A DNA stretch of 59,283 nucleotides, the filler included, from Jimgerdemannia flammicorona (Eukaryota): NCBI GenBank assembly GCA_003990765.1. It is 2 parts of 2 records of this genome, joined end to end, with 100 filler letters (N's around TTAATTAATTAA, not from the genome) between each part and the next. Parts side by side here need not be neighbours in the genome. Positions count along the whole stretch, not along the records: positions 29,707 to 59,283 come from RBNJ01000483.1; 1 more part is not named here. The stretch is one strand, 5' to 3'. The stretch's first letter is position 1, and the number at the start of each line of letters is the position of its first letter. Below, piece by piece: positions 9,392 through 59,283 of the stretch. The notes below the pieces were generated by a model. The model saw only the letters and a list, made by a program, of their open reading frames with translations, was not told the origin of the DNA and did no database searches. Both the position numbers and the translations under genes were made by a program.

Positions 9392-9396
9392 CAAAA

Positions 9397-22442: not shown

Positions 22443-23121
22443 TTGAATCCAGGATAATATATTCTCATATTCTCAATGTTTACATGTTGTCAAGTTGTTT
22501 ACATATTCTCAAGTTGTTTGCATATTCTCGAGTTGTTTAAATATTCTCAAGTCGTTTGCATATTCTCAAGTTGTTTGCATATTCTCAAGTTGTTTGCATA
22601 TTCTCAAGTTGTTTGCATATTCTCAAGTTGTTTTCATATTCTCAAGTTGTTTGCATATTCTCAAGTTGTTTGCATATTCTCAAGTTGTTTGCATATTCTC
22701 TGCTATCCGCCATTCCTTAATCGTATTTCAAGACATTCACTTTAGCCTTCAAATATAAAAATGTACACGGTATCTGTTGCCATGATATGTGATTGTCAAG
22801 AGCAGACCCCATTGTTGATGGCAACCCTTGCTCTTCACGTCGGGAATTACTGAATTCACAGCCTTGCCGCTGATTATCCCGAGCACACCAATCCCGCCAT
22901 ACACCTCGACCAATTAACTCCATTTAGGTTGAATGTATAGCCTGCAAGTTTAGTCCACCACAAAACACAAACCGTTTCTCTTAACCACGTTGACAGTCAA
23001 AATCGGACATACGGCATTCGACCCTCAAAGTGGGATATTCTGGGAACGGATGCACGCTGTCCTAGGGTTCGCGGATATAGATCCGAAGAGAAAGCCCGCT
23101 CGGGAAGACTTTTACCGTGGT
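22443..23121 (+). repeat. Direct repeat copy 2, downstream of the Cys-rich gene, with minisatellite expansion
   Basis: Homologous to 20499-20882. Confidence 0.85.
22465..22700. repeat. 19-bp minisatellite (catattctcaagttgtttg), about 12 copies
   Basis: Seen directly in the sequence. It gives a 19-aa periodicity in the overlapping spurious ORFs. Confidence 0.95.
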
Positions 23122-29606: not shown

Positions 29607-29706
29607 NNNNNNNNNNNNNNNNNNNNNNNNNNNNNNNNNNNNNNNNNNNNTTAATTAATTAANNNNNNNNNNNNNNNNNNNNNNNNNNNNNNNNNNNNNN
29701 NNNNNN
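29607..29706. other. Assembly gap with artificial six-frame-stop linker TTAATTAATTAA (29651-29662)
   Basis: 44 N, the 12-nt linker and 44 N total exactly 100 bp. Confidence 0.95.
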
Positions 29707-29908
29707 TGTCTAAAATTTAGACAATGTCTAAGAAATTAGACAATGTCGAAATCGAGGACTGCTAACTATGATGCTATACTACTTTGGGAATGGGTGCGAT
29801 CAAGTGTCTATTCCCTATTTCCTTCTTCCAAATCTGGCTGTACCATCACAATATATATAATAAGAAATACTGATGGTATAAAATGATTAAAATCTGTATA
29901 TATTATGC

Positions 29909-30750
29909 TATAATATATCAGCTCAATAGAGGTAAATTATAAGATTAGAAATACTATATAGTAGACTTGAATGCTCAGTTACTTTTTCAAAAAGCAATAA
30001 AATGTTCTGTAATTTCCAATATTAGTATTTAGCAGTATAATAGTCAAATCAGTATAAAATGGTCAATTCTAATGATTTTTTAATTTAGATAGTTCTTAGA
30101 TATATAGGAAATTTATAAACAATATAAGTAGTTTTCTTATCCAATTTCTACATAATGATCTCTGCATAATATGAGTAAATTTCTTTTGTGATTTCTATAT
30201 AATAATCATTTCTCTCAAAAGTATATATTTTCTAATGTAATGGTCTCAGTATAATATAGCAAATTTGGCAGAATTTTTTAATAAGTAGTAAGTTGGTAAT
30301 TTTGATAGATAACTTAGTTTGATATAGATTCTTGAACAAAGTTATATCAAAGATTGGCTTCATATATACAAGATTATATTGAGAGACTAACTTTACTATA
30401 ATATTGCATCAGATAGACTGGCTTGTATTGAAAATACTGGGAGACTTTTTTTTAAATAGAAATAGATTTCACTTTTTGACAAAGTTGTGTCAAAGACTAC
30501 TTCATATATATGTAGTTATATTGAGAGACTAACTTTACTACAAAAGATATATCAGATAGACTGACTTTGTAGTAAGATATAAACAGACTTTGAAAATAGT
30601 AACTCTTCTCTTCTTTGTATTAAAAAGTGAACCATAGTGCAAATCAGATATCAAGCTCATAATTTCTTAAAAGTGACTTTAGAGTGGGTATTTCTTCTAA
30701 TTGTTGTGACTTTTTTCTTTAAGATCAAGTGGCTTTTATGAGTAACTATA
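29909..30750 (-). repeat. Old, heavily mutated family B LTR relic
   Basis: The reverse complement reads cttataatttacctctattgagctgatatattata (compare cttgtaatttgcctccattgagccaggcatgttaca) and gaagccaatctttgatataactttg. The right boundary is approximate. Confidence 0.65.
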
Positions 30751-33450
30751 TTATGCTAAGTATTTACATTATCTAGCAATACTATATTATTCACTTAATA
30801 CATTAATCTCTACTAAAGAATAGTCTATCCTCAGGCTGTTCTTTAGTCATTATTATAGTATTCATAAGTATCTTCAGTATCTATATCTATGTAATTATCT
30901 TCTTCGGTATCAGAATCACTTCATTCTAGTAATTTATCTTCTTTCTAAGGAAACAGAACATTAAATACTCAGAGAGTTAAGTATGGTCATCTTTTTGAAG
31001 TTGTTTAGAGTAAACTGGAACTAGATCAATACTCTAACATTCTGTTTATAGATTATATTAAGTCTGTCTGCAGCAATAGTATTTCTCTGGAATAGACTAG
31101 CGTGTTATAGATGTTGATCTGTTCTGAGACTAGAAGGTTATACTATGATTAATCAATTATATATATAGTAAGTCTGCAGTAAATAAATCTGTAGTAGATA
31201 TTCTGCCAGATTAAGGTTTTTTTGGTATATCTAATCTGTTAAAGATAGGTTCTATTTGTTTCTTAAAACTTGGGCAAGGCAACTGATAGAGCTTAGAAGA
31301 AACTGAGGACTAGGATCTGAAGGCACTGATCAATTCTCAGATTTATAGTATAAAGAGAGATATAGCTTGAGATAATTAATATATACTATATAGTGTCTTC
31401 AGAGTTTGCCTAACTATACTTCTTAAATAGATGCTAGTTTCTCTGATAATATATACAAGATAAGATTCTTCCTATTTGAGCTTCAGTTTAGCAGCAATAT
31501 TTATTTCTATTTTGCTTTTCTAAACTAGTGCTTGATCTCTAATTCTGATCTTCTATTCCTTCTGCTTCTGGTCATAGTACTTTTATTGTCTATCTTAGAC
31601 TTTGATTATCTGAGCTTGGGCTTAATTGTGTAATTGTTCTATCTTTTTAAGAAGGTCTCTAAGATTCTTATAATTAGGAGTTCTGATTCTTTTGACTAAC
31701 ATTATTTTGTTTGATAGAGGTAGCAGGGGTATTCTAAATTTTCTATAAGATTTCTGATAAGCAGAGATCCTAGTTAGTAGAATTGATTGAGATAAGTTCT
31801 TTCTTAATAATCTATTCATTCTATCATATCATTAGTTTGGTAGTAGTATTATGTCATTATTTGAGGTAGATCTTGAGAATTCAGACATAACTTATTGATA
31901 AATTCTATATCTCAGTCAGAAATAAGTTCTTCTGAGAGTTCATATCTGAGTGTAAGGCTATAGAAGAGACCAATAATTATCAAGGTATAAGCAATTTCTA
32001 TTGAGAAAGATTCATGTCATTTAGTCAGATATTCTAAAAATACTAGAATATACTTATTTCTTCTGATATAACTGGCAGAAGTTTAATAATATCTACTTCT
32101 CATCTCTGAAAGATATTATCTGATGGTAGAATTGGTTATAGTAGTGCTTGAGAGTTCTTCTTCTCTTAGTACTTCCGACAGATATCACATTTTTTGAATA
32201 TATCTCTTACTTGTGTTTTGATATTTAAAGGAGCTTTCTTTAGAGTATAGTTTCTTAGCACAGCCTTCTCTTGGTATATTAGAGTTGGTAGAAAAGTATA
32301 TCAATATTATTGTGAGCTTTTTCTGCATTATAAATAATGGTAATTTTGTAATTCTATAGAATAAGAATTCAGTGTCCAAGGATTCCAGTAGGTCTCTTAA
32401 GTTAAATAACTATTTGAGGATAGTAAGATCAGTTATTAGAGTGAATTTTTTTCTAATAAGATAGTACTTAAACAGAGTAACTGCTTATATGACTGTAAGA
32501 TATTTCAGTTTAGGATTACTATAATTGATTTACTGCTAGTTAGTGGCTCAGCTTATATAAGCTATCATATAGTACTATTGATCAGATCTTCTTGGACTAG
32601 AACTGCTCTAAAACTATTTTTAAAAGTATTTATATAAGATGAATAGCTTCTGTAGATTGGGCTGTATAAGGATTAGTACTATAGTTATACAGTACGTGAG
32701 CCTTTTAAAGACTAGTTCATGTGATTTCATTTATTTGTATAAATCTCTTTCTTAAGAAAAGTTTAGATTTGAGTGCTGATTTGGACAAAGTTCTAAATAA
32801 ATCTTCTATAGTAGGACACTAATATCAGAAATAATAGTGTAGATCTTAAGTATTGTCCAGTTGTTAATCTTCTCAGTTTTCTTTGGATCTATATGAGTTT
32901 CTTCTTTTGAAACTTAAATTTAAGGAATTTAAGTTTCTGTTTTTCAAAGTAGCTATTGTAAATATAGAGTAGATATTAGAGAAAGAGAGAAGAGCAAAAG
33001 AGTATTTGTTTATTATTTCAGATAGTATATATTTATATATTAAGTAATAATACTGAAAGATAATATATTTATAAATATATATATATATGTAAGTCATATT
33101 ATCAAGATGTTAAAATAATAGAAATTTCAATACTTCTACTTAATGAGATAATATACAAGAATATAATATAAGCAGAAATATAATATAACTAAGTAATAAT
33201 TATAAAATAACTATGAATATAGTAAATGAATACTATCTATCTATACTAAATATAAAAGAAATAGTAGTGAAAATGAAAAATGGAGATAAATCTCAATTGT
33301 AGAAAATCTCAGATATAGAAAAAGAAAGAAATAATATTGCATTATAATGCTTAAAGAGAGAGAGGTATAGAAAGATATATTGTATTATTTCTCTACTTCC
33401 TTTTTATTATAAAATATTCTGTGATTATTGATTTCTTATTACTGACATAT

Positions 33451-41917: not shown

Positions 41918-44900
41918 TGTGACAAACTAAAATGTATCTCCTAAATTATAACTTAGCCAGATGAAATGAACAATTAGTATCTTAGTCAGATGATGTGAAC
42001 ACATAGTATAGTAATCAGATACAGCAACCATTGCCACAAAAAACTGTATAAATAGCCAGACTACCAGATAAGATATATCTATGTAAGATCTGTACATATA
42101 TACTAGACTTGAACACCTACCATAGATAGCAATCTATAATTAGCAATATAGTAACCAGATAGCAACTACAACTGTATGAAATACTTCAGAGATAAGAGTG
42201 AATAAACCTCAGTTCTGAAAAACAAAGCAAAAGACAAGTCTACCTACTATACTTTGAGAGATATGTCTGCCAAAAGACACTTAATCCTGGAAGGATTGCA
42301 ACACTTAAGAGAAATGCCTGCTCTACAGCCATTACTAGGAGATTGTGAGCCTTACCCCTTTCCCACTCTAGTCTACTTTCTGATATAAAGCCTTTGTTTA
42401 CTTGCCAGACTAAGCCTGAAGAATCTGAGTTTATCACCAAGTTTAAGGAAGAACTTTGCCATCTTTTGAGAAGTCTGCCACTTAAAGAATAAGCCACTAT
42501 GTTAGATAAGCCTGAAGAAATACACCAAGTTCAAGGAAGACTTTGTCACCTTTTGAGTTATTCACTGCCTTTTGAAGAGAAACCCACGTTCCCAGAGAGC
42601 CCTATTCTTACCACAAGCCAGTCTGTTGATGCAACTTTGCAGTAGAGCTAGTCTATTGATATAACTCTATACAAATAAAGCCAGTCTTGATGTAACTTGC
42701 CAAGAACCTGAGTTATTATTCCCAGCAAGTCAATTTAGGAAGAATCTGTACTATTCAAGTTATTTTCCAGAAGCCAGCTGATTCAGGAAGAGTTTGTATT
42801 ATCTGTCATTTTTAAGTCATCTGTATTCCTAGAGAACCACTGATTCAGGAAGAATCTACAACAACTGAGTTATTAGTTTATTCTCAGTGAGCCTGAAACA
42901 GACTAGTATAATTCCCAGTAAGCTGCCATTTCAGGGAAGCCATATTATACAAGATGGTTACACCAGAAATTATATACTCTTAGAGATCATCATGCTATAC
43001 AGAGATCACCATACTATACAAGATTGTTACATCAGAAATCACATACTTTTGGCAACTGCTCAAACTATATACGAAATTCTACCAATTCCCAGTTGACACA
43101 AGAAGGAAACCCATTCACACACAAATCACCACTATATCCAGAGAACCATCCCAATAAGGAAATCCAGTGAAATCGACCATTGTATCCAGAACTTGACTAT
43201 TATATCACTAAACACCAACAAGGAACTCAGGAATCTTGGAACATTTTATTGCTTTTTGATAAAGTAACTGGGGGCTCAAGCCAAACTACACCAACCCCCA
43301 ACCTTGTAATTTGCCTCCATTGAGCCAGGCATATTATATTTAGGGGTTTAACTGGGAAAGGTTCTTAATATTGATGTGACTTTTCAGCTCACATAAACCC
43401 ACAGTCAAACTGGATATATTTAATACAATACCAATCTCTGTCACCACAAGAGAACAAGTTATCACCAGCATTTGGATAGGAAGAGAAGTAATTACCTCAA
43501 GACTTACTAACTACCCAGTATCATAAGAATCCCAACCAGAAACTAGAACAGCCCAAAATTCTCAACTAGAGTAACTAGATAATACAGGTGGCCCTGTTGG
43601 ACAACTTGAAGAACTTGTACAAGAACTAGAAGATCTTATTACATAAGCCCAAGATCTTACAGCCAGACATCCCATATCAGTCCCACTAATCTCATCTATA
43701 GAACCTTTACCACTAGCTCTTGCAGAATTGGAAGTAGCTCCTACAAGAATACCTAGACTCATTTCACTTTATCTAATGTCCAGAACACCATCCTGAAGAT
43801 ACCCAAGCACTCCCATCTCTAGTGACAGTTCAGAAAGTAAATCAGAGTCAGAATCCGGATCAGTATCCAGACCAGAACCAGAATTAGCAGAAAGTGATAA
43901 TGAAATGGCCACATCACTGCCAACTTTTGCAGGATATCTGGAGGAAGACTCTAGGGAATTCCTTGATGGGATTGAAGGAATTGCAGCCCTGAGGAATCTC
44001 TTGGATAAAAGAAAAATTGACATCTACAAGGCCCAGCTTAAAGAAACAGTCAGAGGAATTTTCCACTGAATAGCAAATGACCCACATTCAGAACTGATGA
44101 GACAGATACAAGCAGCAGCATCTTATAAGCTAGAATATATAACCATGGTCCACTGGCTCATTGAAAAATATGCAGGAATGAAACCTGCCAAAAGCCTCAA
44201 GAATCCATCATGGAGATGAAGATAAATCTTGGAGAATTGCCCAGAGCTTTCTTCACAAGAATCCAGAAGTGAATGCATGCTGCTAGGTTTAATGCCACCA
44301 ACCAAGACATCATAGGACCAATGACCTTCATGAATGGGATTCCCCTGAATATTGCCCAGCATGTCCACACTCTAGGCATCAGAAGGTCTGAAGAGCAAGT
44401 AGATGTAGCCCAAGAATTCTTTAATATCAGACAAGGAACTATCTGGAGTGATCATGATATGAAAGAAGATAAAGAAGACAATCTGGTCAAAGCCACAAGG
44501 ACTCCTTCAAGGACAAGAGGGATCCAAAGAAAGAAGGCCAGCCAAAGAAGGAAATTAGGACAGGAGTGAAATACAAGACCACAGCTCCAAATTGGACTAA
44601 TTGGTTGGACAGATTGAAAATCTCACTACATGTAAAAATTGGAGTTACTAAGACAACAGAGGATACCAACCACAGAGGAGTCAAGGTTATCTACCAAGAG
44701 ATAATAGGAACTATTAGCAAGAAGAAAGAAGATACTCTGTCCAAGACAGAGCCCAAGTCCAATGCTTCCACTGTAGACAATTTGGACACTATGCTACTGA
44801 ATGTAACAACAAAGTAACCAAAGGGATTCAGAACCATCAAACTGAAGAAATGACACTCAGTACAAGAAGACTGAAGGTCATCCTGTTGAGGATTTCAAGA

Positions 44901-47900
44901 AAGAAAGCAGCAGTGAAGACTATAGTGATCTAGACTTATACCCTACCAAGGTTACTATCCAAAAAACAGTTTACCCAGTAGAGAAGAGGAAGAGACCTGT
45001 ATGAAGGCCATCCAGGAACACCAGCAGACGAATCATCTAAGAAGAAGATGAAGAATATGAAGAAGAGCAAGTAGAAACACCTCCCCAGACTCCTTCACCT
45101 TTTGTTCCTAAGACAAATGAGTTACCACCAGAGGATGAAGAAATGGAACAAGAAAAACGGAAACCTGCTGCCCCAAAGCCCAAGAAGATGTACACCCCAA
45201 AGACCATACCTAGAGACATCTACAATGAAGCCTGGCAGAAGATTCAAGAAGCCAAGATGGAGGTCTCCCTTCTGCAGTTCCTACAACTGATATCAGCAGG
45301 AGTCTGAAACAAATTATAGAGGACCACCAGGTCTAGCACTGGCTGAGTTCCAATCCTACTGCAAGAGCCAGCTCCCATAGCTATTCAGACTACAGAGAGA
45401 TATGTCAGTACCTACATACATAGAGACATCAGAGGACAAAAGGAGAATATCCTTATAGATACAGGAGCAGCTGTCTGTATTATTGCCAAATAATTCCTGG
45501 ACACCCTCCAATGGCCCATTGATGGACCATCCAACCTCAGCATCATAGTAGCAGATAGAGCCTGAACTCAACCCCTTGGAGAAGTATGAAACATCACTAT
45601 CTCTCTCAGACATATTCAGTTCTCCATCCTGAAAGCTATTGTCACTAAAGCTGTCACCTATGATATAATTCTTGGTACCAACTGAAAGAAGGAAATGAAT
45701 GCAGTTGTTGATATTGGTCAACAAGTACTCAAGTTTGGCTACCAAGGTAAGAAGTACAGAGTTAAGATGACTAGTTATGAGCAATCAAAGAAGAAGAAGA
45801 AGGTTATCATCCAGGAGAAATATGCCAGCAGTGAAGAATCCACTATAGAAGAAGAAGAAGAATCTGAAGATAGAAATGATCCCAGACTCAATCCCCAAAT
45901 TAACCTAGTAGATGACAGACCAGAAGACAATGTATGGGCCAAGAACACTATCTCCATTACCATTGGAGCTATTGCAGGAGAAATCAAAGGTTGCCCCACC
46001 TGCCTTAAGAGACACAAGTGCCCTGAGCACTCCTCCAAGATCATTGAGACAAGATATTCGCCTGACACAGCCTACCCTAAGTGCAGAAGAAAGAAGAAGA
46101 AATGCAGAAATATTTCAGAAACACCTGCAGCTGAAACTGCAGAAGTACAAGCAATTTGGAGTCAAGAATTATCTGAGAAAGAAGAAGCTCTAGACCAAGA
46201 AGTTGCTGAACAAGAAGTACCTGAAGAAGAAGATGTCTCCAAACTCATTCTATAGAATAACCCTCACTAGACACCACCTGAAGATAATGACCCTTGGAAT
46301 ATGGAAAAAGGACCCAGCACAATCTCCATTATTTCCAAGAAAGAAACTCACCAAGAAAGGACTTTTTGGCTAGGAAGATGTCCACACCAAATGATCTTCC
46401 ACTCTTCCCAAGACTACTGCTATCAGTGCCATCTATGAGACCAATAGGAGATACAGAGACCCCAGAGACCAGAACTCCGAAATATAGTCACACAGTCAAC
46501 TACCTTTCAAGAGGTTACCACCAAGTTGCAAAGTCAATTCAGAGGACAAGATCTCTTCACCCAAACTGAAGTATACCTCTTATCTACTCTTCTCCTAACT
46601 TATAACCAAGATGGATACTAATTCCCAAGATAACAAGAAATCAACAATAAGGAAAATCATTTCCAAGCAATGGAATATTGTAACTATAAAAGACACCCAG
46701 ATTGGTAAGACTGCAGATATCAGAAGATCCACCTCAGTCCTGATGTTGCAATCTACACATTGAAGAGAGAAGATAATAGAGGCCAGATCTGAAAAAGCCA
46801 GACCAAGAAGCCAGAAAGAAGGACACTCAAGATCTACAATTTAGGTGAAGACATCCTAGCTCTCATCAGACATACCACCTGCCAAGGATGGGCAGAAGAT
46901 GTCACCAACTGCATGGAAACCCTAGACCTTACAGGAAGAAGAGGAATCAACTATTTCCAAGATCTCTCTACTGGATCCAGATGGCTACACCTCAATCTCA
47001 GAACCTGGAGACTCTCTACTAGTAGAGCTTCAGCCCAAGAACAGCCTGAACTCAGTAAGAATATTGCTCAGTATGCCCTGCTACATCCCAAGGCCAAACC
47101 CCCAACCAAAGCTCTCCCAGATGATATAGGATATAATCTTCACAGTCTAGAGGATAAATCCATCAAGTATGGAAAAACATTTATGATCAGAATGAGGCTA
47201 GCCATACAGCCACCTCAAGGAACCTACATATAATTGACCTCAAGGTCTGGACTTGCCAGATAAGGAATAACTGTAGAAGGAGGAACTATTGGCCCAGGAT
47301 ATATGTGTAAAATCAAGGTCATCCTACACAATAGCAGTGTAGAATGGCACTGAAGCATTAGGGACAGACGATTGCCCAAGCAGTCTTCATGAAGGTCAAA
47401 ATCCCACAATTATAAGAAGTCTCCAAACTGACTGAAGGAACAAGACAAGCCAAAGAATTTGGAAGTTGAGATAAGAGAGAAGTATATCTCCTTCAAGTCA
47501 ACCACCTTAAGAGGAATGTCCCCCAGCAGGTATACTGCCAACCAGTCAAACTATACAAGAACCTCATCCTGGAACCTGGAGAACAAACCACCTTTAGAAT
47601 CTTTGCATCACCCAACCCTAGAAATCTCTTCTTTGAACCCAATGAAGATATCACACACCTGGACATAGAAGGACACACCTTTCTTAATAAGATGAACTTA
47701 GTGCACTCCTGAGCAACCACAGATGATGAAGATGATAGAACAGATATTGATGCAGAGGATGCTTACCCACACTGGGATGATGACTAAAGGACAGTCTGAG
47801 GACAGACCATCTTTTAGTGGGAGCTGATGTGATAAACCAAAATGTGCCACCTGAATTATAACTTAGCCAGATAATATGAACAATTAGTAAATTAGCCAGA

Positions 47901-49265
47901 TGATGTGAACACATAGCATAGTAACCAGACACAGCTACCATTGCTGTGGAAATCTGTATAAATAGCCTGACTATCAGATAAGGTATATCCATGTAAGACC
48001 TGCACACCTATGCTAAACTTGCACACCTGTACTAGACTTGCACACCTGTGCTAGACTTGCATACCTGCCATAGATAATAACTATATAAAATACCCCAGAG
48101 ACAAGAGTGAATAAACCTCAGTTCTGAAATACAAAGCTAAAGACAAGTCTGCCTACTATACTTTGAGAGATATGCCTGCCAAAAGCCACTAAATCCAAGA
48201 AGGATTACAATACTTAGAAGAAATTCTTGCTCTATAGCTACTACTAGGAGATTGTGAGCTTTGCCCCTTTTCCACTCTGGTCTACTTTCTGATACAAAGC
48301 CTTGGTTTACTTGCCAGACTAAGCCCAAAGAATCCGAGTTTACCACTAAGTTTAAGGAAGAACTTTGCTGTCTTTTGAGAAGTCGACTACTTAAGAAATA
48401 AGCTGTTACATTTTTGGTTCACTTGCCAGATAAGCCTGAAGAAATCTGCCAAGTTCCAGAAAGAACTTCACTGCCTTTTGAGTTATTCACCACTTTAAAG
48501 AGTAACCCACATTCTCAGAGAGCTCTATTCTTGCCACAAGTGAGTATATTGACACAACTTTGCAATAGAGCCAGTCTAACAATATAACTCCACACAAATG
48601 AAGCCAGTCTTGATATAACTTGCCAAGAACCTGAGTCATAATTCCCAGCAAGCCAATTCAGGAAGAATCCACACTATCCAAGTTATTTCCCATAAGTCTG
48701 CTGATTCAGGAAGAGTCTACATCATCCACTGTTTTCAAGTTATCTGCATTCTTAGAGAACCACTGATTCATGAAGAATCCGTGACATCTGAGTTATTCAT
48801 TTGTTCCCAGTAAGCCTGGAACAGATAAATCTACTGCCAGTATAATTTTCAGTTAGCTTCTGTTACAAGGAAGCCATACTATATAAGATCAGAAATTGCA
48901 TACTTTTGGAAATTGTTATGCTACACAGAGATCACCATACTACACAAGAATGTCACACTAGAAATCACATACTTTTGGCAACTGCTCATGCTACAAATGA
49001 AATTCTACCAATTCTCAGTTGACCCAAGAAGGAAACTCATTTATATACAAATTGCCACTATATCCAGAGAACTATCCCAATAAGGAAACTCAGTGAAATC
49101 GACCATTGTATCCAGAACTTGACTATTATACCACTAAATACCAATAAGGACCTCAGAAATCTTGGAACATTTGGTTACTTTTTTGGCAAAGTAACTGGGG
49201 GCTGAAGCCAAACTACACTAATCCCCAACCTTGTAATTTGCCTCCATTGAGCCTGGCACATTATA
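41918..49265 (+). mobile_element. Family B LTR element copy 2, complete and non-autonomous (LTR-gag-protease-Cys/acidic region-dUTPase-LTR)
   Basis: LTRs at 41918-43338 and 47828-49265, with a probable 4-bp TSD ATAT. It has a knuckle QCFHCRQFGHYATEC (~44760), protease ILIDTGAAVC (~45450), dUTPase and a PPT agtgggagctga. No RT, RNase H or integrase motifs were found. Confidence 0.9.
47069..47466 (+). pseudogene. dUTPase domain of family B copy 2
   Basis: Reads DIGYNLHS, TSRSGLA, EGGTIGPGY.C.IKVILHN, IAQAVF and RQAK.FG, matching motifs I-V. Confidence 0.9.
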
Positions 49266-49596
49266 ATATACTTGCTGGCTTTTGGCTTGAACTTCTACAG
49301 ATTGATAATATTTTATTGAGAATATATATATCATAATTATCTAAATATATGAATGCAATATATCAGACTTTATTCTATTTCGTAACTCTTTTGAAATAAG
49401 ATTATGATTATTTCTGGAATACTTATTATCATTATCAGATTTCTTACTTAATGCTTAAGATATATATTAGTTGCATATATATATCATTATACTGATGGCT
49501 TTAGCTCAATAAGAATATGATAATCTAGCCACATTATATCATTTTTACCATTTCCATAGCTATATAGTTAAATTGCTTAGTTATATCATTCTGCTA
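49266..49596 (-). pseudogene. Ty1/copia integrase core and downstream SH3-like remnant
   Basis: The minus strand reads QNDITKQFN (decayed QNGxAERxN) and KFKPKASK (KLxPKA motif), which continues on the other side of the family B copy. Confidence 0.6.
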
Positions 49597-49678
49597 TAGC
49601 AAAGTGTCCTGCGCATGAGGAGGCTAATGTAAGATGAATAGTGTTCTATATAAAATGAATCTAATGTGAGACATTGGT

Positions 49679-50956
49679 TTAGCTCAAAGGAAGCATATGC
49701 TTCTGAAGGCCTGCCAATTGCATTCGTATACAAAGAGGCCCTAGTAGTGAATGAGCATTGTGGTAAGACCGAGGACGTGGCCGACGAGCCTGATGAGGTA
49801 TTACAAGCCAGTCTGTGAGCAGAGAGAGGATGTGTGTACGTTTTTCGAGTGGGAGGCTGATTGTCATGTTGGGGGCATCGAGGAGAAAGCCCATGTACTT
49901 GATAGTTGGTGTGGGAGGTATATCCTTGACTGCTTTGAGGGGAAGACCAAAGCGAGCAGCGACCGAGTGAAACCGCAAATATGTAGACTGAGCAGTAGAG
50001 GGTGATGCAATATAGATAAAGTCATCCACGAAGTAGCCCAAATTGGGAAGATTATACTGCTGAATACAAATCCACATGAACAAATCCATCAGAGATATGA
50101 ATATTAATGGTGCCAAGCAAAGACCGAATGGAAGGAATATGTCAAGGAAGAAAAGGCCGAGCCAGCAGATGCCTTTCATAGCCCAGTCAGACTGGTGGAC
50201 GGGGATTGTGCGAAAGGCTTCAGCAACATCTGCCTTCCAAAATAGAGCTGTGGTGCCAAGTGCGAGGAGTAGCTGGAGGATGGACTGGATCGACTGGTAC
50301 TGAATTGAAAACTCCTCTGGGTTGATGCCATCATTTATAGAGACTCCCTCTGGAAAGGACAGGTGTTGAATGGTACGAAGTTTGGTAGAGTTCTTTTTTG
50401 GGACAACTCCTAGGGGAGCATTGCGAAAGGGATGAAACTCAGTTGGTAATGCAGAGAGAGATGAAAAGGGTCCTAAGTAGTGACCGGCTTGAAGTTCGGC
50501 AAGAATGTTGGCAGAAAGGATGTTGTGATGTTGGTAAGCTGATGCCAGATTGTCAGATATATAGTCGATATGAAGCTCAGGATGGGAGTGATTGCCGTGA
50601 AGGTAACCCTGACATAGGCCTGTTAAGTGGTACTGAATGAGAAGTTGGTCTGGATGAGTGTGAAGTGCTTGTTGCCACTCCCCAAGGTGGTATGGACACA
50701 CTGGGGGGTCAGACGGGGGTGGGGTCATGAGATTAGCCATGGTGAATAGAGCACTCTGTGCCTGGATGAGAGCTATAGCAGAACAAGCAGACATGGGGGT
50801 GGCCACAATTGCTGTAGCAGCCAGAGCTATTGTAGTTGCGACAGATAGAACTGGCTGCACTGTCTGAGGAGAGAGTATCATCCAGTTTGATGGGGAATGT
50901 AGGTCACGTGAGAGGGGTTTGGGTGCAAGAGGTCGACGCATGCCCCCGCACCCCAC
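49679..50956 (-). CDS. DIRS/Ngaro-like reverse transcriptase, open reading frame truncated before RNase H
   Basis: Motifs PLGVVPKK...KLRTIQHLSFP..SINDGI, KADVAEAFR, LPFGL..AP.IF, YFVDDF and YMGFLLD. The start codon is uncertain. Confidence 0.85.
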   Translation of the reverse strand: MGCGGMRRPLAPKPLSRDLHSPSNWMILSPQTVQPVLSVATTIALAATAIVATPMSACSAIALIQAQSALFTMANLMTPPPSDPPVCPYHLGEWQQALHTHPDQLLIQYHLTGLCQGYLHGNHSHPELHIDYISDNLASAYQHHNILSANILAELQAGHYLGPFSSLSALPTEFHPFRNAPLGVVPKKNSTKLRTIQHLSFPEGVSINDGINPEEFSIQYQSIQSILQLLLALGTTALFWKADVAEAFRTIPVHQSDWAMKGICWLGLFFLDIFLPFGLCLAPLIFISLMDLFMWICIQQYNLPNLGYFVDDFIYIASPSTAQSTYLRFHSVAARFGLPLKAVKDIPPTPTIKYMGFLLDAPNMTISLPLEKRTHILSLLTDWLVIPHQARRPRPRSYHNAHSLLGPLCIRMQLAGLQKHMLPLS

Positions 50957-51799
50957 ACCGAAAGCATAAAAGGGGGCGTGATGAGGTCATTCTGGGACTT
51001 CCTATTGAGGAGGTCATTGTCTATATGGGCCAATGTGTTGGTTGGTAGGCAAGCAGTGCTGATGCCGGCTGGCTGATGATGGTTTGAAACATGCACCAGA
51101 CAGTATCTGGGTTGCCAATATCCAGCTCCGGAAAGGATGCTTTAAGTGTGCGAACTTGTCGGTCAAACTGCTGAAGGGCAGCTCAGTCATAATGGTCATT
51201 GATGGCCTTGATGATAAAGATGATATGTGCAAGTAGCTGTGCAGTAAGTGCAGTGTCAGGGGTAGTCCGAGTAGTGCCCAGAGACAGCAATACACCCCGA
51301 ATGTTGAAGATGGCTTCAAGCCAGAGTGGTAGGTCGAGATCGCGGTCTGGTGGATGTGAATCAGGTTTTTGCCAATTGCTTGGATGTGATAGCAAGACGT
51401 TGCCTGTCTATTTGGCCAGTATTTGGTATTCCCCTGCCTCAAGTGAGGTCAGCAGCTCCGATAGAACCCAATCACGACATAGAATGGCATCAGAGATGAA
51501 TGGGGGGTTAGATGACTCACCATTTAAAGGGTTTGAAAACCATGCTGGTAAGGGTGCCAATGGGGTTGGCTGTGGTAAAAGTGAAGGAACTGCCAGAGAG
51601 GTGAAGGTAGCTGGAAGAGAGAGTACTGGTGGTAAGCTGGGTGGTAGGACTGGAGGGGGGTTGGTGTTGGCTAAAGGTCCATGGAGACATGCCGCAAGTG
51701 TGGAAGTAGCTGTTTGATCAATGCATCGACTTCATGACCATCAGGGAGCAGTGCTGGAGCCAGCACCATAAGTTCGGCGACTGGGAAATTGGGGCCAGG

Positions 51800-52003
51800 T
51801 CAATGAGCATCGAGACATGTAACCAGGGTGGCCTTTTGACCATCTATGGAGAGGTCATGTTCACAGCAGAGTGTGATGAGCTGGTCCTTGCGCAACATAC
51901 ATAGGCCAGTTAAGTTGGGAATTGATGGGGGTGTGTGTGGAGCACCAGGTGCTGGAACTGGGGGATCAGATGGTAGGTCTTGAGACCGACAGATAGGTGA
52001 CAT
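51800..52003 (-). pseudogene. SAP DNA-binding domain at the N-terminus of the DIRS-like gag ORF
   Basis: LCMLRKDQLITLCCEHDLSIDGQKATLVTCL fits the SAP consensus LxxLxxxQLxxxCxxxGLxxxGxKxxLxxRL. A Pro-rich and gag-like sequence follows at 51180-51790. Confidence 0.7.
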
Positions 52004-52769
52004 AATGTATCTGAGAGATAGTGCATGAAATCGATTGATATGAATTACTAATGACGATTGCTAGAGTATGTTGAGGGAAATGTGTGACCACTGCCTAACT
52101 CTTGGCCATGCGGTTGGAGCTCGGGCTAGCTAAGGTAGGGTGCAGAAAGCGATTGAAACTGACTAAGCTAAGATGGTGGATTGCATGATTACATTGTATA
52201 AATGTTTAAGCACATGGTAGGGTACAGGAAGCGATTGAAACTGACTAATCTAAGATGGTAGTTACATTGCGTGATGAATGTTAGACGCACAAGTGTTAAG
52301 CGCAATGGCCACTTTGCTGCATTTTGAACTACATTCACAACTATATTATATATAGTACTATTAGTTAAAGAGTTGTAGAATACTTAAAAGACAGGTGAAA
52401 AGAAGCATAATTGTTTATTGATAGCTTATATACTTTTATATATATTGATAATATTTATATAATGATATAGTCAGACTATAACTGTACTACTATATATCAA
52501 GTTACTATAATGAAAATATTTCAATACTTCAGCAAAATGAGATATATGTCTCAGAATATACAAATAAAAGAACTGTGTAAACTAAATATGATGAACTGGA
52601 TGCTAGTAAGATGACTGAAAAAGGCCAAAATTCTCTACTTATAAGTATAAATATAAGTCAAGAATATAGTAGAAGATCAGCAATATAGATTCAGATCTAT
52701 TTATAAATAAAGAGAGGTGGAGGCTTTTCAGTATTTTAAAACTTCCTATTATTGCTTTATTATTATTAT

Positions 52770-53413
52770 TATTATTATTACTTACTATTTGCTAGTATAT
52801 AGTTTCTGTTTACTAGTATAGAATTATTCATAAGTTAAAATTTACCTTTAAATGGCTTTAGTCAATATATCTGTCATCATATACTCTATTCTAGTATATT
52901 CTGAGTATATAGTGCTGTTTTCTATATATTTTTATATAAAATAATATTATATATCAATATGTTTAGTCTTTGTATAATATATAGGGTTCTTTGCTATAGC
53001 AGTTATAGATTGATTATCTTGTTGGAGTAGTATAGAGTGGTATTGAATATATTCTAACTCTCTTAGCAGTTTCCATAGCCATATAGCTTTCTTGTTTACT
53101 ATAGATAATATTTGGTACTCAGCTTGTATAGTTGATATTGCTACTGAAGATTGCTTATATATTTGCTATAAAATAGCTCTGTTTTTGATGATTCAAAAGA
53201 GATATTCAGTCCTAGACCATCTGTCATTCATGTTACTAGCCTAATAAGTATTATATATACTAAATAACCTTATAGTACTCCTGCTTGATCTATTATTGCT
53301 TAAATATAGTATATAGTATACTGTATTATTAATGTATCTGAAAATATACTTAATTGTAATCTAATATAAATTATTATAGTAGGATGAGTACTGTATCATA
53401 TTATTAAATGTAT
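52770..53413 (-). pseudogene. Second heavily mutated copia RNase H remnant
   Basis: The minus strand reads KQSSVAISTIQAEY and MMTDILTKAI. Confidence 0.7.
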
Positions 53414-56400
53414 TGTAACAAACCAAAACATACCACCTGAATTAAAACTTAGCCAGATGATGTGAACAATTAGTATACTTACCCAGCATAACATAACTTC
53501 CAGTATATCATAGTTACTCATACCTGCCATACTTATAATTAGCCAGGATACCAGATCAGAGTTGTTTATCTATATCCTGAAGACACATCTGTGTCTGGCA
53601 GACACACTCATGTCCTGCAGACACACTCATATCCTGCAGACACACTCATATCCTGTGGACACACCTGTATCTAGAAGATACACCCAAACATTACCAGAAG
53701 TAGTAAATCTATAGTTAGCCATATAACAACTAGATAGCAACCACAATGTATCAATTACCCCAGAGATAAGAGTAAATAAACCTCAGTCCAAAATACAAAT
53801 ACCAAAGAAGCCTCTAAATATTGAGCATTGGTCCCCTTTCTACTCCAGTCCACTTTCTGATATAAAGCTGAAGATTTGCCACCAAGTTCAAGGAAGAACT
53901 ATGCCACCTTTTGAAGAGAAACCTGCTGCTTAAGGAATAAGCCATGCTTTTGATATGCTTGCCAGACTAAGCCTGAAGAATTCAAGTTTGTCACCTAAGT
54001 TCAAGGAAGAACTTCACCACCTTTGAAATTATTGTTATTAGTACACTTGTCAGATAAGCCTGAAGAACCCAAGTTTCTACCATCCAAGAGAAAGCTGCCT
54101 TGCTCAAGCCAGTTTCTGATGCAACTTCACAGTGACCCATTCATGCAAATGAAGCCAGTCTTTGATGTAACTTTGCCAAGAGACCCTTTCCCAAAAAGCA
54201 GCCAGCATATTTTCCAGTTGAAGCCACCATTTCTGAGTTATCCACATTCCCAACAAACCCTGCTAATTCAGGAAGAATCTGCGACACCTGAGTTATTATT
54301 CCCAGAAGAGTCCAATTCAGAAGAATTTGTATTATCTGAGTTATTTCTCAGAGAGTCACTGGTTAGGAAGAATCTGTAACATCTGAGTTATTTGTTTGTT
54401 CCCAATAAGTCTGGTATAGAAGAATCCACTACCAGTATAATTCCCAGTGATATACAAGAACTCTGCCAATTTAAGAGAATCTGCACTAAATCAAGAAGCC
54501 TGCTAAGATCATCCTACCAGAAATTACATACTTTTGGAAATCAGCATACTACATAGAGATCATTATGCAGAGATCACCCACCACTCAAGAAGGAAAACTA
54601 CTAAATTTCTAGATTATCATATATAAGGAGATCATTGTACTACATATGAAATTCTACTAATTTCCAGTTGATCCAAAAAGGAAACCCATTTACAAATTGC
54701 TACTATATCCAGAGAACAGTCCCAATTAGGAAATTGACACACAAATCACTCACAGATATCCAGATTGACTATTATACCACTAAACACCAAGGACTTCAGG
54801 AATCTTAGAATATTTTGTTGCTTTTTGACAAAGTAACTGGGGGCTCAAGCCAAACTACATTAACCCCCAACCTTGTAATTTGCCTCCATTGAGCCAGGCA
54901 TGTTACATTTGGGGGCTCAACTGGGAAGATTTCAAAATTGACATGACTTTTCAGCTTGCAAGAACCCACTGTCAAACTGGATATATTTGATATAACACCA
55001 ATCTCTGCCACTACAGAAGAACCAGTTATCACCAGTATATAGACAGGAAAAGAAGTAATCACATCAAGACTTACCAATTATCCAGTATCAGAAGAATCCC
55101 AACTAGAACCAGAAGCCAGTACAGCTCGAAATCTCCAACCAGATCAACTAGAAAACACCAGTGACCCTGTTGGAGATTTTGAAGAACTTGTACAAGAACT
55201 AGAAGATCTTATCACACAAGCCCAAGATCTTACAGCCAGATACCCCATACCAGTTCCATCAATCTCACCAATAGAACCTTTACCACAAGCCCTTGCAGAA
55301 TTGGAAGTAGTTCCTGCAAGAATACCTAGACTCATTCCACTTCATCCAAGGTTCAGAATACCATCCTCAGGATACTGAAGCACCCCCATCTCAAGTGACA
55401 GCTCAGAAAGTGAATCAGAATCAGAATCTGAACCAGAACCAGAATTAGAAGAAAGTGACAATGAAATGGCCACCTTATTTCCAACCTTTGCAGGATATCC
55501 AGAGGAAGACACCAGGGAATTCCTTAATAGAATTGAAGGAATTGCAGCTCTGAGGAATCTCTTAGATGAAAGCAAAATCACCATCTATAAAGCTCAGCTC
55601 AGAGCACCAGTCAGAGGAGTTTTCCACTAGACAGCTGATGACCCAAACCCAGAACTAGCAAGACAGATACAAGCAGCAATGTCTTATGAGCTAGAATATG
55701 TAGCTATGGCCCACTAGCTTATTGAAAAGTATGCAGGAAATGAAACCCACCACAAGGCTCAAGAATCCATCATAGGGATGAAGATGAAACTTAGAGAATC
55801 ACCCAGAGCCTTCTTTACAAGATTCCAGAAGAGAATGTATACCACTGGGTTCAATGCTACCAACCAAGACATTATAGGTCCAATGATGTTCATGAATGGA
55901 ATTCCCCCAAACATTGTCCAGCATATCTGCACCCTAGACATCAGATGGTCTGAAGAGCAAGTAGATGCAGCCCAAGAATTCTTTGATATCAGACAAGAAA
56001 CTATCTGGAGTAATCATAATAAGAAAGAAGATAAAGAAGACATCCTGGTCAAAGCCCTACAAGGACTCCTTCAAGGACATTAAAGATCTGAAGAAAGAAG
56101 GCCAGCCAAAGAAGGAAAGAAGGATAGAAATGAATCCAAGACCTTAGCTCCAAGTTGGACCAATTGGTTGGACAGATTGAAAAACTCACTATATGCAAAA
56201 ATCAGAGCTACCAAGATAACAGAGAATACTCACCACAGAGGAGTCAAGGTTATCCACTAAGAGATAACAGGAATTACCAGTAAGAAGAAAGAAGATACCC
56301 TGTCTAAGACAGAGCTCAAGTCCAATGCTTCTACTGTGGACAATTTGAACACTATGCCACTGAATATGACAACAGAAGAAGTGACCAAAGGGACCCAGAA

Positions 56401-59268
56401 CCATCAAACCAAAGAAGTGATACTCAGTATAAGAAGACTGAAGCTCACCTTGTTGAAGATTTTGAGGAGACAAGCAACAGTGAAGACTACAGTGACCTGG
56501 ACTTGTACCCTACCAGGGTTACTACTCGAAAAATAGTCTACTCAGTAGAGAAAAGGAAGAGACCTGTAGGAAGACCATCCCAAAATATCAGCAGAAGAAT
56601 CATCCAAGAGGAAGACAAAGAGCATAAAGAAGAACAAGTAGAGACACCCCTCCAGACTCCTTCACCTTTTGTCCCTGAGACAAATGAGCTACCACCAGAG
56701 GAAAAGGTAATGGAACAAGAAGAATGGAAACCTGCTGCTTAAAAGCCCAAGAAGAAGTATGCCCTGAAGACCATGCCTAGAGACATCTACAATGAAGCCT
56801 GGCAGAAGATTCAAGAGGCAAAGATGGAAGTCCCTATGCTGCAGTTCCTGCAACTGACACCAGTCAGAGTCTGAAACAAATTGCAAAAAACCACCAGGTC
56901 TAGTACTGGTCAGATTCCAATCTCACAGCAAGAATCAGTTCCCATCCCTGTCCAAGCAGCTGAAAGACATGTCAGCACCTACCTATATAGAGATATTGAA
57001 GAACAAAAGGTGAAAATCCTCATAGACATAGGAGCAGCTGTCTGTGTCATTGCCAAACAGTTCCTGGATACCCTCCAATTGCCCATTGATAGACCATTGA
57101 ATCTCAGCATCATAGTAGCAGATGGAGCCCAAACTCAACTCCTTGGAGAAGTACGAAATATCACCATCTCTCTTGGACACATTCAGTTCTCCACCCTGAA
57201 AGCTGTTGTCACCAAAGCTGTCACCTATGACATGATTCTTTATACCAACTGGATGAAGGTAATGAATACAGTTGTTGACATCAGTCAACAGGTACTCAAG
57301 TTCGACTACTGAGGCAAGAAGTACAGAGTTAAGGTGACTAGCTATGATCAATTGAAGAAGAAGAAGAAGAAGGTCACTATTCAGAAGGAATATGCCAGTA
57401 GTGAAGAGTCTACCACAGAGGAGGAAGAAGAATCTGAAGATGGAAATGATCCCAGACTCAACCCCAAAATTAACCTAGTAGATGGTAGACCAGAAGACAA
57501 TGTATGGGCCAAGAACACCATCCCTATTATCATGAGAGCCATTGCAGGAGAAATCAAAGGATGCCCCACCTGCCTCAAGAGACACAAGTATCCCGAGCAT
57601 TTCTCCAAGATCATGGGAACAAGAAAATCACCTGGCACAGCCTGCCCTGAGTGCAGAAAGAAGAAGAAGAAATGCTGACATGCTCCAGAAATACCTGCAG
57701 CCAAAGCTGCAGAAGTGCAAGCAATTTCGGAACAAGAATCATCCAAAGAAGAAGAAGTCTCTGACCAAGAAGTTTCTGAACAAGAAGTTTCTGAACAAGA
57801 AGTATCTGAAGAGAAAGAAGTCCCTGAACTCATTCCCTGGGATGACCCTCTCTGGACACCACCCGAAGACAATGACTCTTGGAATATGGAAAAAGGACCC
57901 AGTACAATCACCATTATCCCCAAGAAAGAAACTCACCAAGAAAAGGATTTTCGGCTAGAAATATGTCCACACCAAATGGTCTTCCACTCTCCCCAAGACT
58001 ACTGCTATCAGTGCCATCTACTAGACCAACAGGAGAGATAGCAACCCCAGAGATCAGAACTCCCAAATTTAGTTGCACAGTCAACTACCTTCCAAGAAGT
58101 TACCATCAAGTTGCAAAGCCAATTCAGAGGACAAGGCCTCTTTACCCAGACAGAAGTATACCCCTTGTCTACTCTTCCACCCACTTATGACCAAGATGGG
58201 TACTGATTCCCAAAACAACAAGAGATCAACAACCAGGAACATTATTTCCAAGTAATGGGATATTGCAACCATAGAAGACACCCAGACCACCAAGACTCCA
58301 GACATCAGAAGATACATCTCAGTCATTATGTTGTAGTTCACACTTTGAAGAGTGGAGATAACTGAAGCCAGATCTGGAAAAGCCAGACCAAAAAGCTAGG
58401 AAGAAGGACCCTCAAGATCTATGATATAGGAGAAGACATCCTAGCTCTCATCAGACATACAACCCACTAAGGATGGGCAGAAGATGCTACCAACTTCATG
58501 GATGCCCTAACCCTACAGGAAGAAGAGGAATCAACTATCTCCAAGACCCCTCTACTGGAGCCAGATGGCCACACCTCAATCTTAGAGTCTGGAGGCTCTC
58601 TTCTAGTGGAGCTTCACCCCTAGAACAGCTCAAACTCAGCAAGGACATTGCCCAGTATGCCCTGCTATATCCTAAGGCCAAACCCCCAACCAAAACCCAC
58701 CTATAAGATGTAGGGTATGATCTTCACAGTCTGAAGGATGAATTTATCAAGTCCGGAAAGACATTCATGATCAGAACCAGACTAGCCATGCAGCCACCTC
58801 CAGGAACTTATATACAACTGACCTCAAGGTCTGGACTTGCCAGATAAGGAATAACTGTAGAAGGAGAAACCATTAACCCAGGATATATAGGTGAAATCAA
58901 GGTCATTCTACACAATAGTAGTACAGAATGGCACTGAATCATTAGAGGACAGAAGATTGCCCAAGCAGTCTTCATAAAGGTCAAGACCCCACAACTATAA
59001 GAAGTTTCTGAACTGATAAAGGAACAAGACAAGCCAAAGGATTTCGGAGCTCAGATAAGAAGAAAGTATATCTCCTTCAAGTCAATCACCTCAAGAGGAA
59101 TGTTCCCCAGCAAGTGTATCACCAACTATTCAAACTGTACAAGAATCTCATTCTGGAGCCAGGAGAACAAACTACCTTCGAAATCTTTGCACCACCCAAC
59201 CCCAGAAACCTTTTCTTTGAACCCAAGGAAGATATCCCCAACCTGGACATAGAGGGATATACATTCCC
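53414..59268 (+). mobile_element. Family B LTR element copy 3 (5' LTR 53414-54907, PBS, gag, protease, dUTPase 58653-59050)
   Basis: Colinear with copy 2 up to ~150 bp before the expected 3' LTR. Motifs ILIDIGAAVC, DVGYDLHS, TSRSGLA and RQAKGFG are present. Confidence 0.9.
54910..54926 (+). promoter_or_regulatory. Primer binding site of family B, probably tRNA-Pro
   Basis: The sequence tgggggctcaactggga lies 2 nt after the LTR and resembles the tRNA-Pro PBS TGGGGGCTCGTCCGGGA after CpG decay. Degenerate versions occur at ~26937 and ~43341. Confidence 0.65.
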
Positions 59269-59283
59269 TTTTTTTTTTTTTTT
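59269..59283 (-). repeat. Poly(T) run interrupting copy 3, possibly the tail of another LINE insertion
   Basis: Absent at the equivalent position of copy 2 (~47680). It is cut by the window edge. Confidence 0.4.

Follow-up and report, generated by a model that had tools for sequence, protein, structure and literature searches.

A dUTPase-bearing LTR retrotransposon of Jimgerdemannia flammicorona without reverse transcriptase or integrase: a probable internal-deletion derivative of a Ty3/gypsy-type family

An LTR element that keeps gag, protease (PR) and dUTPase and has no reverse transcriptase (RT), RNase H (RH) or integrase (IN) may be a plain deletion product, or it may represent a lineage that amplifies in this reduced form. 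The question is raised by copy 2 of an element family, here called family B, in a 59,283-nucleotide stretch of the Jimgerdemannia flammicorona genome (the window; GenBank assembly GCA_003990765.1, two parts joined by 100 filler letters, positions 29,707 to 59,283 from RBNJ01000483.1). A sequence-only reading of this locus had suggested a satellite retroelement that transposes as such, builds its own particle, borrows RT and IN in trans and contributes dUTPase activity. We favor, with a probability of about 55%, the view that copy 2 is a non-autonomous internal-deletion derivative of a full-length Ty3/gypsy-type family, and an ordinary dependent element rather than a new kind. The transposons of the window are nearly CpG-free (observed/expected 0.02-0.1); the ratio is ~1.0 in neighboring genes.

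Table 1. Features of family B copies and of their relative, copy 4, in window coordinates
Feature	Position	Strand	Evidence
Copy 1: 5' LTR to 26934, PBS, part of gag, then truncated	25713..28385	+	LTR/PBS similarity
Copy 4, family-B-type 3' LTR, AT-mutated, same termini	29904..30802	-	blastn, nhmmer vs copy 2 LTRs
Copy 4, interior: RNase H 32392-32831, integrase remnants 31810-32058, pol C-terminus and PPT 30803-30930	30803..32831	-	
Copy 2, 5' LTR	41918..43338	+	direct repeat of 47828-49265
Copy 2, PBS-like site, 18 nt, 2 nt past 5' LTR	43341..43358	+	conserved in copies 1, 2, 3
Copy 2, gag region, CCHC knuckle 44760-44807, decayed	43534..44930	+	zf-CCHC below cut-off; colinear with gag/CCHC part of P0008
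Copy 2, aspartic protease (DTGA)	45425..45682	+	gag-asp_proteas, Asp_protease_2, RVP_2 matches; tblastn
Copy 2, acidic/Cys-rich middle region, no Pfam family, conserved C-H-C-C motif	45801..47030	+	patchy alignment to relatives
Copy 2, dUTPase, frameshift-split at ~47361	47093..47472	+	PF00692; tblastn
Copy 2, conserved post-dUTPase tail, closes with in-frame TGA	47473..47713	+	similarity to P0008, P0017
Copy 2, remnant of full-length element's 3' end (acidic pol C-terminus, stop, PPT)	47722..47827	+	homologous to copy 4 30803-30905/30930
Copy 2, 3' LTR	47828..49265	+	direct repeat of 41918-43338
Copy 3, 5' LTR, rearranged U3 variant	53414..54907	+	LTR similarity
Copy 3, interior: PBS, gag, PR 56995-57240, dUTPase 58683-59048, tail	54910..59269	+	homology to copy 2, Pfam

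Copy 2 occupies 41918-49265, with two 1.4-kb LTRs flanking a 4.49-kb interior. The LTR pair is identical at 1179 of 1411 aligned bases (83.6%) and differs at 16.4% of sites. The LTRs start with TGTGA and end with TTATA in copy 2 and with TTACA in copies 1 and 3. The 18-nt PBS-like site lies 2 bases 3' of the 5' LTR in all three copies (in copy 3 it reads TGGGGGCTCAACTGGGAA), and it is putatively assigned to tRNA-Pro by the 3' end of that tRNA. A weak PPT, the short purine-rich tract AGTGGGAGCTGA, is found just 5' of the 3' LTR and has a counterpart in copy 4. Direct LTRs with TG...CA-type termini and the placement of PBS and PPT are those of an LTR retrotransposon. The candidate target site duplication is ATAT/ATAT, or ATATAT/ATATAC (5/6), within a (TA)-rich flank. 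Each of the three copies has a 5' flank with a TATAT-like end, so that this match is explained equally well by chance or by target preference. The complete structure previously described for copy 2 thus stands with regard to LTRs, PBS, PPT and interior, and its target site duplication is a weak candidate.

We scanned the interior with Pfam in all three forward frames, reading through stops. Against a cut-off of 22 bits, the dUTPase family reached 35 bits for copy 2 and 69.6 for copy 3. The scores of gag-asp_proteas were 25.8 and 29.7 bits, respectively, with a cut-off of 28.2, and zf-CCHC was matched in copy 2 alone, under its cut-off (16.7 bits). The frame of 44570-44811 was set by homology to P0008, and the protease region was matched in tblastn by P0008, P0010, P0011, P0013, P0015, P0017, P0021 and P0040. 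Patches of the Cys-rich region align with residues 609-674 and 840-880 of P0008 and 300-374 of P0011. The post-dUTPase tail shares 36% identity with P0008 1015-1086 and weakly resembles P0017 755-825 (E 0.018), the segment just ahead of the P0017 RT. The order gag-CCHC, aspartic protease, dUTPase is that of dUTPase-bearing Ty3/gypsy elements (Metaviridae). The family B reading frame formerly comprised ~1,350 codons, and every copy is now decayed.

No RVT, RNase H or rve match was obtained in the copy 2 interior (Pfam, three forward frames, E<=1), and tblastn with P0011, P0166, P0165, P0201 and P0171 located no RT, RH or IN inside copy 2. As protease and dUTPase can still be detected, an RT would not have gone unnoticed through decay alone. 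The RT-RH-IN block of Ty3/gypsy elements is consequently missing downstream of dUTPase, as the sequence-only reading had it, and the cis signals are retained, as in a deletion derivative. We placed the deletion junction within 47686-47722. Upstream of the PPT, copy 2 keeps what appear to be the last ~24 codons of pol, and the tail and this acidic C-terminal remnant share one frame with a single TGA between them.

A relative with part of the missing block lies in the same window. Copy 4 shares with copy 2 the final ~105 nt of the interior and, after it, a family-B LTR with matching termini, and it carries remnants of replication-enzyme genes: its RNase H scores 34.9 bits with Pfam RT_RNaseH, P0011 matches its interior in tblastn, and its integrase remnants match the copy 5 integrase in blastp. 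Because copy 4 shares LTR termini and 3' end with copy 2, and copy 2 holds a pol C-terminal remnant, copy 2 is best read as a plain internal-deletion derivative, which speaks against a stand-alone satellite. The partner with shared LTR termini called for earlier thus exists in copy 4, with its RNase H and integrase remnants. This copy lacks its 5' half, including the PBS, as it is interrupted near 33444 by a LINE tail with poly(A). An RT-bearing form with the same gag-PR-dUTPase part is therefore presumed, and copy 4 could belong to a sister subfamily, its LTR being ~60-70% identical to family B LTRs, over aligning stretches only. Copy 5, a colinear relative of copy 4, carries RT-RH-IN; no family-B LTR was found following it (9390-11200), nor any further family-B 5'-half remnant elsewhere in the window. 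Both copies are interrupted by a LINE, and copy 5 also by a family A element (3000-9389), which retains gag, dUTPase and PR, in the order dUTPase then protease, between two intact LTRs and has lost RT and IN. This is the same kind of loss as in family B, indicating that RT-IN deletions recur in this genome. An RT open reading frame located between copies 2 and 3 (minus strand, 49682-50986) was rejected as a partner; it does not resemble Ty3/gypsy RT and is not enclosed by the LTRs.

Among 15 relatives scanned, seven have protease and dUTPase, and two of these seven, P0011 and P0017, carry RVT_1. The latter two are metagenomic proteins with protease, dUTPase, RT and RNase H in one open reading frame, and the C-terminus of P0010 aligns with an RT N-terminus. 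The order PR-dUTPase-RT has been published for basidiomycete and bdelloid rotifer elements (PMC2864245, PMC5408684). Together with P0011 and P0017, it identifies family B as a protease-dUTPase-RT layout minus RT-RH-IN. By their published description, the dUTPase-carrying Ty3/gypsy elements of fungi and bdelloid rotifers (PosPlaTy3-5 of Postia placenta, elements of Phanerochaete chrysosporium, and Juno, Vesta and TelKA) have a CCHC Gag and a protease, then dUTPase before RT, as in family B (PMC2864245, PMC5408684). Compared with these descriptions, copy 2 is devoid of RT, RNase H and integrase, and family B has a 450-residue Cys-rich/acidic spacer between protease and dUTPase. RT-RNase H matches reach at most 44% identity and are spread over plants, insects and Mucoromycota. 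For the BTB-SPRY gene there were three matches, and its atlas rows included Nematoda, Haptophyta and Mucoromycota.

The closest intact homolog is P0008 (1179 amino acids, ~30% identity; its source name is 'dUTP pyrophosphatase'). At 29-36% identity, it aligns colinearly with family B from the C-terminal part of gag through CCHC, protease, Cys motif and dUTPase to the tail. It differs in being intact, in a tail 93 residues longer and in being known from the protein alone; like copy 2, it has no RT domain. A word-based search with P0008 600-1179, within a limited range of protein lengths, gave 53 proteins and no second protein with spacer and tail: except for P0008 itself, they cover the dUTPase part only (16-35% of the query). 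An atlas search with P0008 returned scores of <=0.80, which are leads only, and one metagenome scan for its locus yielded a single dUTPase locus, L001, which is unrelated.

The claim that the RT-less form transposed as such had been drawn from copy 3. Copies 1, 2 and 3 each have a different 5' flank, which confirms separate insertion sites and gives at least three insertions. The copy 3 interior is 84.3% identical to, and colinear with, copy 2 43341-47685. Colinearity stops at 59269 (copy 2 position 47685), where a T-run and the window end follow, ~40 nt short of the deletion junction position. The window therefore gives no view of whether copy 3 has RT, the same layout as in copy 2 extends to this point only, and transposition of the RT-less form is not demonstrated by it. 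A segmental duplication of copies 2 and 3 was considered from two flanking stretches (39420-39987 and 52839-53405, 72-77% identical) and rejected, as their distances from the LTRs differ and their similarity is below that of the copies themselves. By eye, these stretches resemble a copia-type RNase H fragment; Pfam gave no match.

We compared copies 2 and 3 for traces of selection. dN/dS is 0.32-0.50 across the open reading frame versus 0.72-1.41 in shifted frames, it is well under the shifted-frame controls in each of gag, PR, spacer, dUTPase and tail, and the signal persists with a neighbor-base control (CMH p=3e-9). Purifying selection thus acted on the whole frame while the two lineages diverged. 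Neutral evolution of the dUTPase, named earlier as evidence against a satellite, is not what we find (dN/dS 0.41 versus 0.55-0.78 in shifted frames). This selection could have acted in full-length ancestors, and we infer that the signal comes mostly from their replication. Low dN/dS in all segments is, on the other hand, also predicted by the satellite idea, and the suggested contribution of dUTPase in trans is unsupported. Five stops are common to the copies, where independent hits at the 115 codons at risk would give 2.6; this count does not establish an already defective master.

In our preferred reading, family B would be a dead Ty3/gypsy-type family with the full-length order gag(CCHC)-protease-Cys-rich spacer-dUTPase-tail-RT-RNase H-integrase. 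In copy 2, a deletion that begins within the post-dUTPase tail and stops ~24 codons short of the pol terminus has removed all that lay between, and the tail now adjoins the outermost 3' part of the element (pol C-terminus, PPT and 3' LTR). Copy 2 retains all cis signals for reverse transcription and integration (both LTRs with their termini, PBS and PPT). To be copied and inserted, its RNA would depend on RT and integrase from full-length siblings sharing these signals, of the copy 4 type. The deleted form may thus have been mobilized in trans and, if ever mobile, was probably a short-lived passenger rather than a persistent satellite lineage.

Such a lineage, an amplifying RT-less form with its own Gag, protease and dUTPase that packages its own RNA, borrows RT and integrase and has its reading frame under selection, appears unlikely to us. 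It would account for the purifying selection from gag to tail, for a deletion that spared the whole gag-to-dUTPase frame and the PPT, and for family A, which independently kept gag, dUTPase and PR while losing RT and IN. P0008, with the same layout including the tail and without RT, could likewise represent an old RT-less lineage or else a two-ORF design; it may have a pol frame downstream. For E. muscae, an enrichment of the proteome in the Pfam families aspartic protease, dUTPase and zf-CCHC has been reported (10.1101/2023.09.13.557621), which is a lead only. The junction is, however, seen in one copy only, with copy 3 ending before it and copy 1 truncated in gag; the selection signal is not assignable to RT-less ancestors; and the deletion cuts into the conserved tail and hence looks accidental. 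We likewise regard as doubtful the wider proposal that families A and B are coding satellite retroelements that stayed under selection for Gag, protease and dUTPase while parasitizing full-length relatives for polymerase and integrase, with P0008 as a sign that dUTPase-bearing Ty3/gypsy elements include an old and widespread branch without RT.

Copy 2 could also have been inserted at full length and have lost RT-RH-IN later on the chromosome, in which case no RT-less form ever moved and copy 3 would be, or would once have been, a full-length element. The single junction seen, the age of the copies (the LTR divergence of copy 2 leaves ample time for deletions) and the damage to other copies (copy 1 truncated, copies 4 and 5 hit by a LINE and copy 5 by family A) are in line with this scenario. 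We nevertheless give it a low probability: the deletion is clean, with the PPT kept and both coding remnants in one frame, and the parallel RT-IN loss in the LTR-intact family A suggests a recurrent process at replication, neither point being decisive. That copy 2 is an assembly chimera from repeat collapse is very improbable. The region is repeat-dense, with N gaps at 29607-29650 and 29663-29706 and a T-run at the window end, but copy 2 is free of gaps, its junction sequence has its own homolog in copy 4, and its LTRs are closer to each other than to the copy 3 LTR.

Internally deleted, non-autonomous LTR elements moved in trans are known from the deleted forms of HERV-H, from ETn/MusD and from BARE-2. 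Family B shares with them an intact LTR-PBS-PPT frame, lost replication enzymes and co-resident full-length relatives with matching LTRs. It differs in keeping a long gag-protease-dUTPase frame with past purifying selection, and its deleted form is seen once here. LARD and TRIM elements likewise have no RT or integrase, but they have no coding capacity, so that the gag, protease and dUTPase remnants of family B with their signature of past selection rule out membership. In the betaretroviral pro reading frame, dUTPase is joined to a retroviral-type aspartic protease, separate from RT. There, dUTPase comes first, as it does in family A, whereas in family B the protease comes first, ~450 residues ahead of dUTPase. 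We ruled out a betaretrovirus-like endogenous retrovirus by this reversed order and by a protease of the gag-asp_proteas/RVP_2 type without an RVP (PF00077) match.

If the ordinary reading is true, the value of the locus lies in annotation: it adds a dUTPase-bearing Ty3/gypsy family whose Cys-rich spacer is unusually long and documents a deleted derivative, plus a second family with the same loss in the window. If the deleted forms were amplifying lineages under selection, they would represent a natural division of labor among retroelements, in which structural and nucleotide-sanitizing genes are kept and the polymerase is borrowed.

A self-comparison of the window revealed three colinear plus-strand copies of family B, an LTR retrotransposon family with gag, protease and dUTPase. 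Copy 2 is a complete element, as the sequence-only reading had it: its two LTRs are identical at 1179 of 1411 aligned bases, and an 18-nt PBS-like site, which we take to be a tRNA-Pro primer binding site, lies 2 bases past the 5′ LTR and is kept in all three copies. AGTGGGAGCTGA precedes the 3′ LTR of copy 2. Family B LTRs start with TGTGA and end with TTATA in copy 2 and with TTACA in copies 1 and 3. The target site duplication previously judged probable for copy 2 is putatively ATAT, or ATATAT/ATATAC; these bases are present, but the (TA)-rich surroundings make them weak evidence. The 5′ flanks of copies 1, 2 and 3 are all different, so the copies are separate insertions. The U3 of the copy 3 LTR is rearranged, which fits two subfamilies.

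Features located in the window and in two metagenomic relatives of family B
Feature	Position	Strand	Remark
Copy 5, RT-RNase H-integrase fragment	574-2780	plus	better preserved than copy 4 and colinear with it
Family A, complete LTR element	3000-9389	minus	LTRs 3000-4496 and 7891-9389, 89.6% identical
Family A protease	4899-5252	minus	
Family A Cys-His motif	~5100-5400	minus	
Family A dUTPase	5457-5837	minus	86 bits
BTB-SPRY tandem paralogues	12878-14197, 16403-17191	minus	intronless; in a duplicated block 85.5% identical
19-bp tandem array	22439-22757		at least 12 units; adjoins Cys/Gly-rich open frame
Copy 1	25713-28385	plus	LTR and part of gag
Two N runs (assembly gaps)	29607-29650, 29663-29706		between copy 1 and copy 4 LTR
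Copy 4 LTR	30802-29904	minus	AT-mutated; several blocks and the two termini align with family B LTRs
Copy 4 3′ interior end	30803-30930	minus	homologous to last ~105 nt of copy 2 interior, 47722-47827
Copy 4 integrase remnants	31810-32058	minus	
Copy 4 RNase H	within 32392-32831	minus	RT_RNaseH 34.9 bits; tblastn
LINE RT C-terminal ORF	34348-35022	minus	
Two stretches 72-77% alike	39420-39987, 52839-53405	minus (by eye)	resemble a copia-type RNase H end, by eye
Copy 2 5′ LTR	41918-43338	plus	repeated directly as 3′ LTR
Family B Cys-His motif	46300-46470, 57826-58065		
Copy 2 3′ LTR	47828-49265	plus	
Open frame with RT domain	49682-50986	minus	435 codons; RVT_1 26.7 bits, below cut-off 29.6
Copy 3 5′ LTR	53414-54907	plus	interior begins 54910
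P0008 Cys-His motif	644-674		
P0011 Cys-His motif	340-362		

For copies 2 and 3, each of the three plus-strand frames was translated through its stops and compared with Pfam (E ≤ 1). dUTPase scored 35 bits in copy 2 and 69.6 bits in copy 3 (cut-off 22), gag-asp_proteas 25.8 and 29.7 bits (cut-off 28.2) and Asp_protease_2 23.3 and 28.7 bits (cut-off 24.3); zf-CCHC was matched in copy 2 (16.7 bits, cut-off 20.8) and not in copy 3. The scan gave no match to any family of RT, RNase H or integrase, and tblastn with five relatives bearing these enzymes placed the domains elsewhere in the window, with none inside family B. The RT-less state of copy 2, already noticed by eye, is therefore real. The deletion junction, at which the conserved tail following the dUTPase meets a remnant of the pol C-terminus, lies within 47686-47722, inside the tail. 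Copy 3 is colinear with copy 2 through 59269 (47685 in copy 2) and then runs through 14 T residues to the window end, its own junction site falling ~40 nt beyond. The proposal of transposition in the RT-less state thus draws on a single copy, copy 2, where the junction is visible.

Looking for an autonomous-type partner that shares LTR termini with family B, as had been proposed, we found copy 4. The stretch that it shares with copy 2 translates into an acidic C-terminus ending at a stop, with the PPT after it. Because copy 4 joins RNase H and integrase to a family-B 3′ end and LTR, a form with replication-enzyme genes and family-B LTR ends exists; copy 2 still carries the extreme 3′ end of pol. 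Copies 4 and 5 are colinear over ~1.8 kb (27.7% identity over 611 residues, E = 1e-52). They also have the same junction, where the G-rich 3′ end and poly(A) of a LINE abut the RT N-terminus (1-603 and 34086-33444), suggesting either a duplicated composite or a LINE with a preferred insertion site. The body of a LINE whose RT C-terminal ORF lies at 34348-35022 probably makes up the strongly skewed stretch at 34-40 kb. Copy 5 is interrupted within its integrase by family A, the second dUTPase-bearing LTR element, and resumes at 9395-9520.

Copy 2 and copy 3 agree at 3646 of 4326 aligned sites (84.3%) and have diverged from each other about as much as the 5′ and 3′ LTRs of copy 2. Of 12 gaps in the alignment, eight have a length not divisible by three. 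Stops among the 1347 aligned codons number 25 in copy 2 only and 12 in copy 3 only, with 5 more common to both. A defective master of the two copies is not indicated, because the 5 shared stops compare with 2.6 expected from independent events at 115 codon sites one step from a stop. Codon positions 1, 2 and 3 carry 203, 158 and 272 differences, respectively (chi-square p = 1.6e-7), and the third-position excess persists when stratified by neighbouring base (CMH p = 3e-9). After exclusion of stop-containing codon pairs, which made up 42 of 1347 in frame and a larger number in the shifted controls, three methods gave dN/dS values of 0.32-0.50 in frame versus 0.72-1.41 in two shifted frames. The in-frame value is below both shifted frames in six of six segments, among them the tail (0.11 versus 1.23-1.84) and the dUTPase (0.41 versus 0.55-0.78), the latter speaking against neutral dUTPase evolution. 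We read this as a period of divergence between two lineages in which purifying selection acted on the entire ORF, a signal compatible with ancestors with or without RT.

The window is eukaryotic and repeat-dense, with a bimodal CpG observed/expected ratio (0.02-0.11 over transposon-rich parts versus ~1.0 over the gene-bearing 10-25 kb). Within family B, C-to-T differences are common not only at CpG but also at CpA and CpC, and less common at CpT; the AT shift is much stronger in and around copy 4 (GC 0.28). For the BTB-SPRY genes, of which the paralogue at 16403-17191 is the shorter, only 3 related proteins were found (39-44% identity), and a Cys/Gly-rich 215-codon open frame (21610-22257) had no Pfam match. 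The RT between copies 2 and 3, with a CCHC knuckle upstream in another frame, does not resemble Ty3/gypsy RT and is part of a separate retroelement. The two copia-like stretches, one of which abuts the copy 3 5′ LTR, had no Pfam match.

When the protease-to-dUTPase stretch was searched exhaustively with HMMER, 2188 matches passed E ≤ 0.001 and 2 passed E ≤ 1e-30. Among 15 of the longer matches scanned with Pfam, seven combine protease and dUTPase; in two of these seven, the metagenomic proteins P0011 and P0017, RVT_1 follows, with RNase H too in P0011. The C-terminus of another metagenomic relative, P0010, aligns with an RT N-terminus in the window. The protease-dUTPase-RT order is already described for basidiomycete elements and for bdelloid Juno, Vesta and TelKA (PMC2864245, PMC5408684). 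Family B is predicted from its sequence to be a Ty3/gypsy element of this known type. In families A and B, P0008 and P0011, the dUTPase module comes with a conserved Cys-His motif, G-x-C-x-H-x(4-5)-[FY]-[SH]-S-x(3-5)-C-x(2)-C; the motif is found on either side of the dUTPase and covered by no Pfam family.

It is unlikely that RT-less family B represents a selected lineage, amplifying with borrowed RT and integrase while keeping its own Gag, protease and dUTPase. The purifying-selection signal on the copy 2/3 ORF speaks for such a lineage, as does P0008, the best match (1179 aa), which is colinear with family B through gag, CCHC, protease, Cys motif, dUTPase and a 70-residue tail (29-36% identity). 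Pfam detected no RT domain in this protein; a separate downstream pol ORF is possible. Family A offers a parallel: its 3.4-kb interior runs from gag-CCHC through dUTPase, Cys motif and protease to a chromodomain-like end (CCHC knuckle, Cys motif and 3′ end recognized by eye, the last with no Pfam match), and RT and integrase were not found in it. The same loss occurs in two unrelated dUTPase-bearing families within 59 kb. Against an amplifying RT-less lineage, however, only one junction-bearing insertion, copy 2, is visible in the window. We favor the view that copy 2 is an internal-deletion, non-autonomous derivative of a protease-dUTPase-RT element, one whose movement would have required RT and integrase supplied by full-length siblings.
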